64,000 nt of DNA from Escherichia coli (GTDB lineage: Bacteria; Pseudomonadota; Gammaproteobacteria; Enterobacterales; Enterobacteriaceae), in NCBI RefSeq assembly GCF_002854065.1, contig NZ_CP024151.1; one strand, written 5' to 3'. Position numbers and translations under genes: made by a program. Positions 1,767 through 30,122 of this stretch are shown piece after piece. The notes under the pieces are model-generated. The model did no database searches and was not told the origin of the DNA. It saw only the letters and a list, made by a program, of their open reading frames with translations. Position 1 is the stretch's first letter, and each line of letters opens with the position of its first letter.

Positions 1767-3329
1767 ATGCCTCTGATCACGCGGCTTATGCTGCAAAACT
1801 TTAAAAAGTTTCCGGAACTGGACCTGCGCTTCACTCATGACCGTAACATTCTGGTCGGGGACAATGAGTCCGGGAAAAGCACGATTCTGCTGGCCCTTGA
1901 CCTTGTGCTGAGCGACAGCCGGCACCGGGTCGAGGCATTGGGTGTGGAATCGCTCCTGTCCCAGTCAGCAGTCAGGCAGTTTCAGGAAGGTGAGCGCCGC
2001 GCCGATCGGTTACCCGTGCTGACAGCTGATGTTTTCCTGAGTAATGGGGGAGATCCTGACCTGAACGGCAGGCAAAATCTGGCGGGTATCGATGCGGATG
2101 GTCTCAGAATGCGCATTGCACCCATGACGGAGGAATACGGTCAGGATATACATCATGTCCTGCAGCAGGATCCCGATAATTTTCCCTATGAATACTATTC
2201 CGTGCGGTTCAGCACCTTCTCCGGGGGGCATTTTGCCGGCTTCAGACGCTATCTGCGCCATCTGCTGTTAGACAGTGCACGCATCGATAACGAGCACGCC
2301 GCACAGGAATATACGCGCACAGTTTACAGCGTCAATGTGCCGGTAGCCGATCGGTACCGGCTTGAAAACAGTTACCGGCAACAGAAAATGCACTTCTGCA
2401 CCCGGCATCTGTCAGCCATAAACGACACGCTGGATACGTATCAGTTTGGCGTGCGTTCCGGTGCTAAATCAGGTCTTGAGGCGAATCTGGACATTACCGA
2501 GGACGGTATTTCCATTCGTCACCGTGGAAAAGGAAGGCAGTGCTTCATCAAAACAGAGTTTGCACTGCAGCGGCATCAGCAGCAGGGAGAGCTCCACGCA
2601 CTGTTGCTTGAGGAGCCGGAGAATCATCTCAGCCATGTCAGTATGAAGAGGCTGGTTAATCAGCTTGCAACTGAACGGCAGACGCAGGTGTTTATTGCCA
2701 CACACAGCAGCCATATCTCATCCCGCCTCGATCTGCGTAAGGCAATCCTCCTCGGGTCTGCCCGACCGGTACTGATGAATGAACTTTCCGCTGAGACTGC
2801 CGCCTTCTTCATGAAAGCACCGGACAATAATGTGCTGGAATTTGCGCTGGCCAGACGTGTGCTGCTCGTGGAGGGGGATGCTGAGTTTATTCTGATCGAG
2901 GCCTTTTATCGCCGCCTGTATGGCAGGTCGCCGGAGGATGACGGGGTTCACATCATCGCTATCGGCGGAACGAGTTTCCGTCGTTATCTTGAACTGGCCC
3001 GTCTTCTGGAAAATCGCGTCGCGGCCCTTCGTGATAATGACGGCAACTATCAGCAAAACTGCGATGAACGCTATGCTGACGTGCTTTGTTCCCGCTCCCG
3101 GGTATTTGCTGATCGCGATAACACCCGATCCACATTTGAAATCTGCCTGTATCAGGATAACGCTGGTCTGTGTGATGCGCTTTTCCGCGGAACACGCCGG
3201 ACACTCACGGTGCAGGAATACATGCTGGCCAATAAGGCAGAAGCAGCATTCCGGCTGTTACAGCTGCACGCCGAAGAGCTGACAGTACCTGATTATATTC
3301 AGGAGGCACTGGCATGGATAAGAGAGTGA
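1767..3329 (+). CDS. OLD-family ATP-dependent endonuclease (N-terminal ABC-type ATPase plus C-terminal TOPRIM), GajA-like
   Basis: Walker A GDNESGKST near the N-terminus, Walker B-like LLLEEPENHL, H-loop IATHS, then TOPRIM signature LLVEGDAEFIL ... RDNDG. RBS AAGGAATAAAAG precedes the ATG. Confidence 0.8.
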   Translation: MPLITRLMLQNFKKFPELDLRFTHDRNILVGDNESGKSTILLALDLVLSDSRHRVEALGVESLLSQSAVRQFQEGERRADRLPVLTADVFLSNGGDPDLNGRQNLAGIDADGLRMRIAPMTEEYGQDIHHVLQQDPDNFPYEYYSVRFSTFSGGHFAGFRRYLRHLLLDSARIDNEHAAQEYTRTVYSVNVPVADRYRLENSYRQQKMHFCTRHLSAINDTLDTYQFGVRSGAKSGLEANLDITEDGISIRHRGKGRQCFIKTEFALQRHQQQGELHALLLEEPENHLSHVSMKRLVNQLATERQTQVFIATHSSHISSRLDLRKAILLGSARPVLMNELSAETAAFFMKAPDNNVLEFALARRVLLVEGDAEFILIEAFYRRLYGRSPEDDGVHIIAIGGTSFRRYLELARLLENRVAALRDNDGNYQQNCDERYADVLCSRSRVFADRDNTRSTFEICLYQDNAGLCDALFRGTRRTLTVQEYMLANKAEAAFRLLQLHAEELTVPDYIQEALAWIRE

Positions 3330-4336
3330 TATTTGCGGTTGCCGGCTCGGGCAAGACCACGCTGCTGATACAGCGGTTGAGTGAGGACCGGCGGACGCTG
3401 ATCCTGACCTTCACCGTGAATAATGAAGCGCATCTCCGGGCGCAGATTATCAGACGTTTTGGCTTTATCCCGGACGGGATCAGGGTGATGACCTGGTTTG
3501 AGTTTCTGCACGGTTTTTGCTTCAGGCCTTTCCTGCAGGAGCAGCTGGCATCGCGTGGGCTGAGCTTCGACCAGCCCCCACCCAGAATACCGCGCACGAA
3601 TGCCCGGCATTATCAGGATCCCGCCGGACGGCTGTATCACCGGAGGCTCGCACACTTACTCACAGCCCGGGGGCTGCTGCCGGATATCCGTACCCGGCTT
3701 GCCCGTTACTACGATGAACTGCTTATCGATGAAGTCCAGGACTTTGCCGGACATGACTTTAATTTTCTGCTGGAGCTCTGCCGCGCGGAAATCACTGTGC
3801 TCTGTTGCGGCGATTTTTATCAACATACCTTTGATACAAGCCATGACGGCAACGTTAATTCAACGCTGCACGATGACATTACGCGATATGAGGCCCGCTT
3901 CGACGCAGCAGGTTTCACGGTTGACCGGGACACGCTCAACCGGACATGGCGTTGCTCAGCTTCAGTGTGCGAGTTTATCACCGGACAACTGAACATCCGT
4001 ATCGCTGCCCATGGGATACATGCCACCCTGATTGAAACGATCACAGATGCAGAGCGCACAGCCACCCTGCACGCCGATAATACGGTGATTAAGCTCTTCT
4101 ATCGTGAACATCACCGTTACGGCTGCTATTCCATGAACTGGGGCGTCAGTAAAGGGCTCGACCACTTTCAGGATGTCTGCATTGTGATGGGATCTTCCCA
4201 CTGGAAGCTTCTGACCCGTCAGGAACTGGCAGCCCTTCCACCGTCGTCCCGTAACAGGCTGTACGTGGCATGCTCACGGGCGCGCGGCAACATTTATTTT
4301 GTTCCCGAAATTCATCTGCGCCGATTCCGGAACTGA
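3314..4336 (+). CDS. Compact UvrD/Rep-like SF1 helicase (340 aa), GajB-like partner of the OLD nuclease
   Basis: Motif I AVAGSGKTTLL, motif II LLIDEVQDF, motif III GDFYQ, motif VI-like VACSRARG; start overlaps the last 16 nt of the OLD gene and its AGGAGG RBS lies inside the OLD 3' end, indicating translational coupling. Confidence 0.75.
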   Translation: MDKRVIFAVAGSGKTTLLIQRLSEDRRTLILTFTVNNEAHLRAQIIRRFGFIPDGIRVMTWFEFLHGFCFRPFLQEQLASRGLSFDQPPPRIPRTNARHYQDPAGRLYHRRLAHLLTARGLLPDIRTRLARYYDELLIDEVQDFAGHDFNFLLELCRAEITVLCCGDFYQHTFDTSHDGNVNSTLHDDITRYEARFDAAGFTVDRDTLNRTWRCSASVCEFITGQLNIRIAAHGIHATLIETITDAERTATLHADNTVIKLFYREHHRYGCYSMNWGVSKGLDHFQDVCIVMGSSHWKLLTRQELAALPPSSRNRLYVACSRARGNIYFVPEIHLRRFRN

Positions 4337-4469
4337 GTCAGCTGCTTCTCAGTCGGGCACAATTCAGAAATAAAGCTGTATGGCCAACGATGTCACTTCA
4401 GGCTGGAAAAGTGCGGATCCGGTTTTGGTGGTTTTCGGATCTGCGGTGGAGAAATGAGAAAACAGGATA

Positions 4470-4620
4470 TGCGCAGCATATCCACATGCCACGCATCTGC
4501 ATAGGGCAGACATACGCATATGTCAGTCATCTGCATATGTTACACCTATACAGACCAGTCCGGCAGGCATATACTGCACATATGTACTCACACATCATGC
4601 ATGATCAGCCGGAGGAACAT
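4470..4620 (+). promoter_or_regulatory. Second vagCD-type operator/promoter region (diverged duplicate)
   Basis: Same family of CATCTGCATATG / GCATATG palindromes as at 940-1030, upstream of the second vagC copy. Confidence 0.45.
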
Positions 4621-4622
4621 CC

Positions 4623-4853
4623 ATGCGCACAGTTTCGATATTTAAAAACGGCAATAACCGCGCCATCCGTCTGCCCCGGGACCTGGATTTTGACGGCGTC
4701 AGCGAGCTGGAGATCGTCCGGGAAGGGGACAGCATCATTCTGCGTCCCGTCCGGCCGACCTGGGGCTCGTTCGCGCAGCTGGACAGGGCCGATCCGGACT
4801 TTATGGCGGAGCGTGAGGATGTGGTCAGCGATGAAGGACGCTTTGAGCCATGA
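4623..4853 (+). CDS. vagC: Second VagC/VapB antitoxin copy
   Basis: 76-aa ORF about 90% identical to the first copy (MRTVSIFKNGNNRAIRLPRDLDFDGVSELEIVREGDSIILRPV...). Confidence 0.8.
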   Translation: MRTVSIFKNGNNRAIRLPRDLDFDGVSELEIVREGDSIILRPVRPTWGSFAQLDRADPDFMAEREDVVSDEGRFEP

Positions 4854-4993
4854 AGAAAACCTGGATGCTCGACACTAACATCTGCTCGTTCATCATGCGC
4901 GAGCAGCCGGCAGCGGTGCTGAAGCGCCTGGAGCAGGCGGTGCTGTCAACGCCACGATGTTTGACCGTTATTTGCCATTTTCATGCCCGCTAA
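4850..4993 (+). pseudogene. vagD: Truncated vagD/vapC (PIN toxin) remnant
   Basis: MKKTWMLDTNICSFIMREQPAAVLKRLEQAVL matches the vagD N-terminus for about 32 codons, then homology ends at about 4945 where IS21-family-derived sequence begins; the reading frame runs into unrelated sequence and stops at 4993. Confidence 0.75.
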
Positions 4994-5003
4994 GATACTT
5001 TCG

Positions 5004-5787
<784 letters not shown>

Positions 5788-5791
<4 letters not shown>

Positions 5792-6429
5792 AACAGCTCC
5801 TCATAGGCACTCAGTGGTCGATGTTCCACCTGACTGACCTGCTGCCAGAGCGGGGCGTGATGCTCCGGCACTGTCTGCCAGCCAGACGATGCCGGACAGA
5901 GGCGATGTGAGGCCACCAGTTTCTCATTACTGTAGATCCGCAACTCGTCATCCAGCGATATTCGTATCGATACTGGCTGACCACACAGCGCTTCGGGAAC
6001 GCTGTAACGATTACCACCAACCTCGATATAGCTGTCCCAGGACACATGGCGGATGTCGAAGTAACTGGTATCGAAGTCCGTATCCGGTAACGGCTGCAGA
6101 TGTTCCTGCTCCAGCGCGAAGCGCTGTTCCGGCGTTTCTTTGAACTGGCGAAGCTCCCGTTTGTCAGCCACATCGGCTATCCATTGCTCCAGTTGTTGAT
6201 TAACATGAGTGAAGCTGTCGAACCTGCGGTACCGGACGAAGAAGTTCTCCTTGAGGTATTTCACCATCCGCTCAACCTTACCTTTTGTTCTGGCCCTGCG
6301 TGGACGGCATGCCCGTGGCAGGAAGTTATAGTGGTCGGCCAGCAACAGGAATCCGGAGTTGAACACGACTTTCCCGTTGTTATTCTTCAGCACCGCAGCC
6401 TTCTGGTTATCAACCAGCACCGTTTTCAC
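5788..6429 (-). pseudogene. istA: istA (IS21-family transposase) C-terminal fragment
   Basis: Translation ...[24 protein letters not shown]... is characteristic of the IstA C-terminal region; the N-terminal catalytic part is absent. Confidence 0.7.
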
Positions 6430-26670: not shown

Positions 26671-27196
<526 letters not shown>

Positions 27197-28011
27197 AATG
27201 CACCTCATCCTACATACTCTCTATACACAATTAAGTATACACCAGTATTACGCTATAGCATGCCTCAGGCAATGGAATATTGTTATCAGGCTATTATTAA
27301 CACTCACATCAATAACCAACACAAAAAGTAACCATGGCAGTAATAACCAGCAATGTAGTAACCATGCTAAATTACAGAATAACTGTTTTTTCATGATCCG
27401 ATTTTTATAGGATTCAGGAATTTCAGGAAGTTGATCACGATCAGTGAATAAGCGAAGTGATCTTTTCTGCCGCTGATGACTGGCTCGCGAACACGGGAAT
27501 AAACACAACATACAGTGTTATGTCAGCGGGCATGAACACAACATCCTGTGAAATCTGGCCAACGGACGGCAGCGAAGGATCTGCGGATCCGGAACAACCA
27601 GAAATCGGATCTCAGGAGAGGAGAAGAAGGATTATTGCCGAAAAGTCAAAAAAACGGCACATTGTTGCGGTGAATGGATTATTGCACAGAAAGCAAAATT
27701 TAAGGATTACTGCCCCTGATACAGCAACAAAGAGGGAAGGGAAACTTTTTTTCAGTTTTTTTACCGACCGGCCTTAAAGGCCGCATCGGATTTCCTAAAT
27801 ACAGTTTTAGAGAAGGTAAATTCTATGACTGTATTTTTGATGGCTATTGCCTACGGCATTTTAAAAACTAGGTGTTTCATTTTATTGGTAGTTAAGGGGT
27901 ATCCGGGCTGGACATTATTCTGGAAAAACTATGACCGTCTCCCTCATATCATCCGTTCCCGCTGCCGATACCAGAGACGATTCATGTTCAGACGCATCTG
28001 GAAGCGAGTCT

Positions 28012-28302
28012 TCAGCGACTGATAATGTTATCGAGCGGCATACCCAGTCCGGCCAGCCAGCACAGGCAGCACCAGGTGGTGTACACCATACTGGTCTCGC
28101 CGGATTTCCACTTACAGATGGTGCGTTCGTCCACAGTCAGCCGGTTGGCCAGCTGGCTGTCAGTCAGGAAGATAAGTCCCCTGACCAGCTGGATTTCGTC
28201 GACTGTGGGCTTCTGCCAGTCTTCTCCGCTGACCAGCGTATAGCCATTAAATTTTTTGGCCTCGATAAGATCGCTGAAATACCTTTCGGTATCCGCATTC
28301 AT
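28012..28302 (-). CDS. HTH-XRE DNA-binding protein, HigA-like putative antitoxin
   Basis: 96-aa ORF with helix-turn-helix segment LTDSQLANRLTVDERTICKWKSGET; 4-bp overlap with the upstream small ORF. Confidence 0.5.
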   Translation of the reverse strand: MNADTERYFSDLIEAKKFNGYTLVSGEDWQKPTVDEIQLVRGLIFLTDSQLANRLTVDERTICKWKSGETSMVYTTWCCLCWLAGLGMPLDNIISR

Positions 28303-28462
28303 AATTCATCCTCCTGAGCAGATTGCCACAGCACCGGGTTTTCCAGCGTGTAATAATAGCCATGATCCAAATCCTGCTTATCCAGATACTCATTAAGCTT
28401 GCTTATCTCATAGGCTGAATAAAAAGTACTGGAAGAGCCAACATTATACATATCGATTGTTG
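28299..28462 (-). pseudogene. Small upstream partner ORF (toxin-like position) whose 5' end is replaced by an IS2 end
   Basis: The track ORF (28299-28490) draws its first codons from IS2 terminal-repeat sequence beginning at 28463; only about 50 native codons remain. Confidence 0.35.
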
Positions 28463-28583
28463 TAGACTGGCCCCCTGAATCTCCAGACAACCAATATCAC
28501 TTAAATAAGTGATAGTCTTAATACTAGTTTTTAGACTAGTCATTGGAGAGCAGATGATTGATGTCTTAGGACCGGAGAAACGT
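28463..28583 (+). mobile_element. IS2 left-end fragment (about 121 bp)
   Basis: TAGACTGGCCCCCTGAATCTCCAGACAACCAATATCACTTAAATAAGTGATAGTC... matches the IS2 left end at 36102-36222, then diverges after ...GGACCGGAGAAACG. Confidence 0.8.
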
Positions 28584-28600
28584 GAATCGCCACGGATAAT

Positions 28601-29236
28601 TTAGACACTTCCGAGCCGTTGATAATACTGGTTTTCATATTCTGTCGGTGACATCTGATCGCTGGAACCATGCCGACGCTTACTGTTATAAAACATTTCG
28701 ATGTAATCAAAAATATCGCTGCGGGCTTCTTCCCGCGTTCCGTAGATCTTTTTCTTTATCCGTTCGCGTTTCAACAACTGGAAAAAGCTTTCTGCAACCG
28801 CATTATCATGGCAGTTACCGCGACGGCTCATGCTGCCCTCCAGGCCGTGTGATTTCAGGAACGACTGCCATTCATGGCTTGTGTACTGACTGCCCTGATC
28901 CGAATGAACCAGCACCTGTTTTTGGGGATTACGCCGCCATACAGCCATCAGCAGTGCGTTCAGGACAATGTCTTTTGTCATCCGGGATTGCATGGACCAG
29001 CCGATAATTTTGCGTGAGAACAGATCAACAACCACGGCAAGATACAGCCAGCCTTCGTGGGTCCTTATGTAGGTTATGTCCGTTACCCAACGCTCATCCG
29101 GAGCATCCGGATTGAACTGTCGCTGAAGCCTGTTGGGCGACACGATACTGGCCTTGCCTTTACGAGCCCGCGGGCTCCGGTATCCGACCTGAGCCTTTAT
29201 CCCGATACGTTTCATCAGTCGCCAGACTCTGTTCAC
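28601..29236 (-). pseudogene. IS3-family transposase OrfB fragment (integrase core, N-terminus missing)
   Basis: ...[33 protein letters not shown]...HSDQGSQYTS... DDE integrase core of an IS3-family OrfB; no orfA upstream. Confidence 0.65.
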
Positions 29237-29324
29237 TCCGCACTGTTGCCCGCTGTCCCGCAGATCTAAATGGATTTTGCGATAACCGTAAGCGTACAGC
29301 GAGGGCCGTATTGACGGGGATGTG

Positions 29325-30026
29325 TTATTCAGCTGGCAGTGCTATGCGCCACGGAAGCAGTTCGCTGACCCGGTTGACCGGCCAGTCTGCTATGACGCCA
29401 AGCACATGGCGAAGGTAGCTTTCTGGATCCACGTCATTCAGTTTGCACGTCCCGATCAGGCTGTACAGTAGCGCTCCCCGCTCACCACCATGGTCAGAGC
29501 CGAAGAACAGGAAGTTTTTACGACCCAGACTGACCGCCCGCAGGGCATTTTCAGCGATGTTGTTGTCGATTTCCACCCAGCCATCGTTCGCATAGTACGT
29601 CAGTGCCGGCCACTGGTTAAGTGCGTACGCGAACGCCTTCGCCAACTCTGAGTGTCGCGACAGGGTCTTCATCTTTTCACGCAACCAGCTTTCCAGGGAT
29701 TTCAACAGCGGTTTCGTTTTTCGCTGACGTTCAGCAAGCCGCTGCTCTGCCGGCATTCCCCTTATATCCGCCTCTATGGCGTACAACTGACCGATCTGCT
29801 CCAGGGCTGCTTCCGTCAGTGCTGACGGGATGCGGACGTGCACATCGTGGATCTTTCGGCGGGCATGAGCCCAGCAGGCAGCTTCCGTTATCCGACCATT
29901 GCGATACAGCTCGTTGAACCCGGCGTACGCATCCGCTTGCAGCACACCGCTGAAGCAAGCAAGATGAGTCTGCGGATGGATGCCTTTTCTGTCCGGGCTG
30001 TAAGCGAACCACACTGCAGGTGCCAA
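29325..30026 (-). pseudogene. IS66-family transposase (TnpC) C-terminal fragment
   Basis: 233-aa ORF ...[13 protein letters not shown]...[63 protein letters not shown]... is the characteristic IS66 TnpC C-terminal region. Confidence 0.7.
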
Positions 30027-30122
30027 CGCTGACCCGGCATTGCGGTCATCACGAACATGATCTTACCCAGCAATAGTGGACACGCGGCTAAGTGAGTAAA
30101 CTCTCAGTCAGAGGTGACTCAC

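Follow-up and report, generated by a model that had tools for sequence, protein, structure and literature searches.

The 64,000-nucleotide stretch of Escherichia coli DNA analysed here (the window) probably carries, next to its ccdAB addiction module, what is left at the 3′ end of an accessory operon of a plasmid: an insertion sequence (IS) destroyed the operon and a promoterless relic of a KorC-type repressor gene stayed behind. The window is a segment of an IncFIA-type plasmid, rich in IS and equipped with ccdAB and a resD-like integrase gene. The first-pass annotation had read the small gene as the orphaned antitoxin of an IS-inactivated addiction module. This is not borne out: the encoded protein is a homologue of KorC and the partners of its family are interchangeable.

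Anatomy of the truncated locus

The features of the region, in order along the window, are the following:

26671-26976, minus strand: ccdB (from the ORF list and the annotation of an identical plasmid segment)
26978-27196, minus strand: ccdA, neighbouring addiction module
27678-27700, no strand: inverted repeat IR1, ATTATTGC-N7-GCAAAATT, lying upstream of sTM, a candidate site of protein binding
27770-27782, no strand: inverted repeat IR2, palindrome GGCCTT-A-AAGGCC, ending ~45 nt before the start of sTM
27825-28022, plus strand: sTM, conserved gene of a 65-aa membrane protein, convergent with korC (11-nt overlap of the 3′ ends)
28012-28302, minus strand: korC-like gene, intact, 96 aa, putative KorC-family HTH repressor gene, NCBI name "korC" (from the ORF list, homology and AF2)
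28299-28462, minus strand: DUF4238 3′ remnant, 54 codons and the stop codon of a 375-codon gene, a pseudogene (from the alignment break relative to L003)
28463-28582, plus strand: IS2 left-end stub, 120 bp, with IRL, promoter region and the first orfA codons, cut by another IS
28583-29300, minus strand: partial IS3-family element, with the C-terminal 211 aa of the transposase at 28601-29236 (from the ORF list, PGAP and blastn)
29325-30026: ISEc8 fragment, following the partial IS3-family element
from ~30050: IS3, following the ISEc8 fragment (from blastn to the IS3 of L003)

The HTH gene described at first pass is confirmed. Window sequence and ORF list show an intact 96-codon ORF on the minus strand at 28012-28302, and AF2 and Foldseek give its product an XRE-like fold. 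Its start codon (28302-28300) and the stop codon of the upstream frame (28301-28299) share the tetranucleotide ATGA; this 4-nt overlap, also noticed at first pass, is read directly off the sequence. The gene is regarded as real because the identical protein is recorded on 530 contigs, its family is strongly conserved and its AF2 model, a single HTH domain, has a pLDDT of 91.5. The protein is 100% identical to its counterpart in the intact loci. As annotated before, the gene adjoins ccdAB, which lies ~800 nt downstream of korC on the same strand.

The uninterrupted reference locus was that of E. coli plasmid pRHB11-C17_2 (CP057883.1), designated L003. From the korC stop codon to position 28463 the window is essentially identical to it, the one difference lying in the remnant. 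The alignment breaks at 28463, where TAGACTGGCCCCC.../TAGACTGGCCCCCTGAATCTCC... starts; the T at this position is common to the IS2 end and to its target. The first-pass annotation had correctly placed there the replacement of the 5′ part of the upstream gene by IS2, and the end that it gave (28583) agrees with the stop of the IS2 match at 28582. The "small upstream ORF" that it reported exists as a frame but is not a small gene, as it consists of the last 54 codons, out of 375 (14%), of a gene coding a DUF4238 protein. By blastn against L003, neither the remaining 321 codons nor the preceding gene are present anywhere in the 64 kb. The remnant matched 483 plasmid records by tblastn, and where the gene is intact it corresponds to the C-terminal end of a "DUF4238 domain-containing protein".

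In L003 the gene order is a 530-aa protein (which has no family match), the 375-aa DUF4238 protein and the 96-aa protein, then ccdAB. The same trio is found on Klebsiella and on other E. coli plasmids, and every uninterrupted homologue has a DUF4238 protein of 375-377 aa at the upstream position. A locus of Morganella morganii (L011, 1031-1312) has an internal deletion in the 530-aa gene, which is cut to a 93-codon ORF joining N- and C-terminal segments; DUF4238 and korC are still intact there.

The junction between remnant and IS2 is present in 35 PLSDB records while ~20 (IncF plasmids) carry the uninterrupted, near-identical allele. Plasmid pPM4-5-103k carries the same junction according to its PGAP annotation. 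The korC ORF is undamaged in the junction-bearing plasmids among the matches listed, as would be expected if the event is recent but also if the function has been kept.

The segment 28463-28582 matches IS2 ends in 4851 of the 5426 complete E. coli genomes, with 97-100% identity to annotated IS2 ends ("IS3-like element IS2 family transposase"), which identifies it as IS2. The match covers query bases 1-120 only; IS2 is therefore present only as a 120-bp stub. The near-identical plasmid NZ_CP096835.1 (L014, 17593-24665), compared with window positions 28583-30050, carries a complete IS3-family element and a 4-kb gene of an S6-family autotransporter peptidase, with the IS2 stub on one side and the partial IS3-family/ISEc8 fragments on the other. 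Both are missing from the window, which is consistent with their loss by recombination between two IS copies.

No sigma-70-like promoter was found on the minus strand upstream of korC, in the remnant and stub. The partial IS3-family element is transcribed towards korC, and its transposase fragment, being on the korC strand, makes read-through into korC possible. RP4 provides a direct precedent for a korC gene severed from its promoter by a mobile element: its korC lies downstream of klcA in an operon interrupted by Tn1, and is read through from bla (PMC7314908).

The arrangement would have arisen from an ancestral accessory operon, probably defence-related, composed of the 530-aa gene, the 375-aa DUF4238 gene and, last, the translationally coupled 96-aa KorC-family gene. 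IS2 would have entered the DUF4238 gene at codon 321/322, and everything upstream of the insertion, the operon promoter included, would have been lost from the window. Another IS3-family element would later have cut IS2 to the 120-bp stub. The intact korC would thereby be left without a promoter that can be recognised, and could only be expressed by read-through from the adjacent IS.

The KorC-like protein and its genomic partners

Scans of the 96-aa protein and of the remnant against Pfam, PADLOC and NCBIfam yielded nothing above threshold; the sub-threshold matches were HTH_Tnp_1_2 (E 0.19) and VC1465/XafT (E 0.0014). The identity of the protein was therefore taken from pairwise comparison with characterised KorC proteins, to which it is homologous: 37% identity over 68 aa with KorC of RK2/pBS228 (IncP-1; E 1e-11) and 37% over 63 aa with KorC of pOXA-48 (E 1e-14). 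Public records name it "korC" or "YiaG/XRE". A profile search among 1.8 billion representatives identified 189 relatives, most of them 80-105 aa long. Several are encoded directly after a RadC/JAB gene, as in pOXA-48, and many of the remote ones match HTH_3, HTH_31 or HTH_23. In PLSDB, 1351 records carry a member of the enterobacterial KorC-like subfamily, Klebsiella virulence plasmids among them. A scan of GTDB representative genomes gave 5 loci only, a scarcity attributed to the subfamily being narrow and mostly plasmid-borne.

The Foldseek neighbours of the AF2 model are XRE-type HTH proteins that comprise antitoxins (HipB, HigA2) as well as plain regulators (Aca2, C.Kpn2I, P2 C), with TM scores of 0.45-0.5 and weak E-values, all ≥0.09. 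Since this fold is common to antitoxins and repressors it cannot separate them, and it is homology that points to the 96-aa product being a putative KorC-type DNA-binding repressor. The C-terminal TTWCCLCWLAGLGM segment was considered as a membrane anchor and rejected, because its hydropathy (1.35) is below the usual 1.6 and the model has a confident buried helix at this place. A 96-aa ORF located beside pifA in the F plasmid was also rejected as a relative, being unrelated.

The window protein shares with its RK2/RP4 homologue the small single-domain HTH architecture and the distal position in the operon, korC coming last after the upstream (cargo) gene in all intact loci. RK2 KorC differs by its length of 85 aa, without the extra N-terminal helix of the window protein, by upstream genes (klcA/klcB) that are not DUF4238 genes and by its defined operators at klcA, kleA and kleC; its gene also has no convergent small membrane-protein gene. 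According to the literature, the promoters of klcA, kleA and kleC are the targets of repression by KorC in RP4. In pOXA-48 (IncL) the homologous korC gene is likewise last after a larger cargo gene, here encoding a 149-aa JAB/RadC protein, and sTM is lacking. For pOXA-48 an autoregulated orf24-korC operon has been predicted, its promoter containing a KorC site; korC is reported to be needed for plasmid maintenance, its inactivation being impossible without plasmid loss (PMC12365149). The window lineage differs from this situation in that its korC lost both cargo and promoter, and the plasmids persist. By homology with KorC of RK2/RP4 and of pOXA-48, where a small repressor would likewise guard its own operon, the KorC-like product would repress the operon that encodes it, perhaps with other genes, and keep it quiet in established hosts; this would be a kil-kor logic exerted on transcription and not by the binding of a toxin.

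The promoters of the cargo genes were compared for 10-mers and scanned for inverted repeats in search of a KorC operator, but they have no such site in common, so that autoregulation can only be proposed. The palindromes ATCATA-N5-TATGAT of two loci (L007 and L009) were rejected as a family operator, as they occur only with a particular divergent gene and are found neither at other loci nor at this site of the window. This 17-bp sequence is present in two exact copies in L007 (1609-1698) and in three copies, one of them mismatched, in L009 (1230-1320), between the divergent small gene and the cargo operon. It is probably the operator of a different regulator.

The KorC-like gene directly follows at least three sequence-unrelated types of cargo (~340-380 aa) in Enterobacterales plasmids. 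These are DUF4238 proteins, which fall into two clades with 49% identity between them; DUF3800 proteins, also encoded on the Klebsiella virulence plasmid pLVPK; and proteins of 345 aa and 340 aa that have no Pfam match, the 345-aa one not being similar to DUF4238 in sequence. DUF3800 is an RNase H-like domain and a partner in type VII retrons (PMC7736814). The junctions between cargo and korC are ATGA overlaps, 1-nt overlaps or gaps of 10-20 nt, which implies that cargo and korC are co-transcribed and that translation of korC is coupled to that of two of the cargo types. Whatever the cargo, the C-terminal two-thirds of the KorC-like protein are almost invariant. The first ~20-40 residues vary: the N-terminal regions of DUF4238-linked and DUF3800-linked versions are different, and the protein that accompanies the 345-aa cargo carries an N-terminus of the DUF4238 type. 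No mention of korC together with DUF4238 or DUF3800 was found in the literature searched.

Two cassettes are arranged in tandem in L007 (CP083495.1, IncI-gamma/K1; 1899-6408), the order being TIR/DUF4238/korC-like and then DUF3800/second korC-like. The TIR protein belongs to PF10137 and is the PADLOC candidate PDC-S35. An E. coli two-gene TIR system with a DUF4238 partner has been published (PMC11350192).

The convergent membrane-protein gene and its inverted repeats

All the intact loci examined from the enterobacterial subfamily, with any cargo, have a homologue of sTM that converges on the KorC-like gene, those of pLVPK and of Pectobacterium chromosomes included. It is absent only in L004, a Klebsiella plasmid (NZ_CP092403.1) in which IS903B took the place of the 3′ part of korC. 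The length of the ORF stays within 65-68 codons, with substitutions distributed 63:48:125 over codon positions 1, 2 and 3; judged from this sequence comparison, sTM is under purifying selection. The protein has one N-terminal transmembrane helix (KD19 1.95) followed by a very basic tail, and its database relatives are all "hypothetical" or unannotated. In loci L030-L035 (Citrobacter and Hafnia plasmids, Pectobacterium chromosome; ~3870-5280) the korC-like/sTM block is followed by a gene of a 459-498-aa RES-domain protein, divergent from sTM, which brings another toxin-like domain to the variable site.

The 170 nt upstream of sTM are conserved and hold the two inverted repeats, both candidate binding sites for a repressor. 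Ten loci have IR1, each as a single copy; its arms are conserved, its spacer is variable and its half-site spacing is 11 bp, and it is single-copy in the 64-kb window. An exact IR2 is present one time per locus in the window, in three plasmids nearly identical to it and in L005, L007, L008, L009, L010 and L011; one-base variants are found in L003, L012 and L013 and a more divergent form in L028. In front of the cargo genes both repeats are lacking. The constant core thus comprises korC, sTM and the repeats, and it is intact in the window. An Rfam scan of positions 27200-28700 found no known RNA. A further motif, (C)AGATCCGAAAA(C), is located ~110 nt upstream of the starts of DUF3800 and 345-aa cargo genes (L007 ~4850, L009 ~1370, L012 ~4735), and a variant, GAGATCCGATTTC, is on the window minus strand at ~27590-27625, on the far side of the regulatory region of sTM. 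The motif might be the sign of a cassette boundary.

We tentatively consider it possible that an undescribed three-part cassette recurs on enterobacterial plasmids and ICEs, composed of a swappable defence-like cargo of ~340-380 aa, a 3′-coupled KorC-like repressor and a convergent sTM of 65-68 aa with its two repeats. The KorC-like/sTM/repeat core might be a unit of the kil-kor type, still working in the window, that would gate the defence cargo (for example by a burst on entry in a new host) or stabilise the locus.

In a related and rather doubtful proposal, the KorC-like gene would be no orphan at all since its partner would be sTM: the KorC-like protein would bind the repeats and control a potentially harmful membrane protein, as in a kil-kor pair. 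The presence of sTM beside all types of cargo as long as korC keeps its 3′ end, the purifying selection acting on it and a helix-plus-basic-tail layout that resembles small membrane toxins all favour such a pair, as do the undamaged korC ORF of the junction-bearing plasmids among the matches listed and the conservation of IR1 and IR2 upstream of sTM, the variable spacer and 11-bp half-site spacing of IR1 included. The window lineage nevertheless persists in 35 PLSDB records after the loss of the korC promoter, which suggests that expression of korC is dispensable unless read-through suffices, and the korC genes of RK2 and pOXA-48 have no convergent gene.

Toxin-antitoxin readings and significance of the locus

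Our preferred reading remains that of a relic repressor gene at the end of a destroyed operon. It is improbable, although toxin-first order and ATGA overlap are as in HigBA, that the gene codes an orphan type II antitoxin whose DUF4238 partner, a large toxin or abortive-infection effector held by direct binding, was removed by IS2. The XRE-like fold resembles HigA2 and HipB (E ≥0.09), and the N-terminus of the small protein varies with the cargo as would that of a partner-binding antitoxin. A distant DUF4238 protein is moreover a validated anti-T7 defence gene: the 309-aa protein encoded in a P2 hotspot suffices on its own to make E. coli resistant to T7 (Rousset et al. 2022, PMC9122126). This protein, Rst_DUF4238, shares with the plasmid protein the PF14022 family, the N-terminal H-x-LSQ-x-L-x-F motif region and a similar defence-island-like context. 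It differs in length (309 versus 375 aa), and the plasmid protein has no PADLOC match; in the window its gene is in any case destroyed. The two align weakly, over ~90 N-terminal residues only (hhalign E 0.007), and because of the weakness of this match the lost DUF4238 gene can only be said to have had a possible role in defence.

Several observations stand against such an antitoxin. The small protein is homologous to KorC, and near-identical HTH cores serve unrelated partners, the DUF4238-type N-terminus being also used with the 345-aa partner. In Vibrio, Pseudomonas and Aeromonas no small gene follows the full-length DUF4238 orthologues (41-45% identity), and the validated DUF4238 protein acts as a single-gene system. 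Decay is found in both directions. In L004 (4038-5410) DUF4238 is intact and korC is cut after codon 64 by IS903B, the convergent 65-aa gene being also missing; this is the only lineage with intact DUF4238 and disrupted korC, and an IS3 located upstream means that DUF4238 may be silent there. A Serratia plasmid carries the opposite arrangement, an intact korC and a DUF4238 gene truncated at its 5′ end beside a mer transposon, with loss of the conserved N-terminus. Unrelated cargo, solo orthologues and decay in both directions argue against a toxin tolerated only in presence of the KorC-like protein.

A similarly low probability is given to the absence of any functional link, in which case the KorC-like gene would be a backbone regulator beside an insertion hotspot where the upstream genes merely landed. 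The segment next to ccdA is indeed a variable, defence-island-like site. Classical F has pifC/pifA, the T7-exclusion genes, next to ccdA at the equivalent position, and the same site in relatives is rich in defence-like genes, coding TIR (PF10137, PADLOC PDC-S35), HEPN/MNT, DUF3800 and RES-domain proteins. The constancy of the korC-sTM-repeat block beside a variable cargo would also fit. However, the stop/start overlaps and 10-20-nt gaps, which imply co-transcription with the cargo and translational coupling for two cargo types, speak for a link.

A literal HigBA module, in which IS2 would have inactivated a small HigB/RelE-fold toxin upstream of a HigA-type antitoxin, finds support in the geometry of the remnant alone (small truncated ORF, 4-nt overlap, HTH gene downstream) and can be discarded, since the intact loci already refute it: all uninterrupted homologues have the 375-377-aa DUF4238 protein, which has no RelE/ParE match and whose AF2 model (pLDDT 85) has no significant structural neighbour in the PDB.

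The search for a RelE/HigB toxin in uninterrupted homologues, suggested at first pass, thus had a negative outcome. The intact DUF4238 protein scores 34.4 bits with Pfam PF14022 (cut-off 27) over residues 6-155 only, in its N-terminal half, and no RelE/ParE Pfam, PADLOC or NCBIfam match was obtained for it; a profile search of PDB sequences also gave nothing. The remnant, being the last 54 aa, is outside the PF14022-matched region and has no Pfam match. The resemblance to HigB-HigA invoked at first pass is real for the overlap and the downstream HTH gene, and fails for the upstream gene, which is not a small RelE/HigB toxin. With HigB-HigA and HipA-HipB the locus shares the toxin-first order with overlap and the XRE-type HTH fold of the downstream product. 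Its upstream gene, in contrast, codes 375 aa with no relative of solved fold and is neither a RelE/ParE toxin nor a HipA-type kinase, and the partners of the window family are interchangeable instead of obligate. Relative to HigBA/RelBE systems, an XRE HTH gene overlapping downstream is present, in a geometry that is not specific of toxin-antitoxin loci, while the toxin of ~90-110 aa with RelE/ParE fold beside the antitoxin and the obligate co-occurrence of partners are both absent. Calling a module HigBA-type thus takes more than a small ORF with an overlapping HTH gene after it.

What was found is an ordinary pseudogene created by an IS, beside a known kind of plasmid repressor, already publicly named korC, and in itself matters little, as one more IS-truncated gene on an IncF plasmid. 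Its study corrects an attractive mis-annotation as HigBA. It also shows that the site next to ccdAB on IncFIA replicons holds interchangeable genes of phage-defence-like character: pifA, DUF4238, TIR, HEPN/MNT, DUF3800 and RES. The conserved core of korC, sTM and inverted repeats is a modest lead, given a KorC-like subfamily spread over more than 1300 PLSDB plasmids and a korC gene that pOXA-48 needs.
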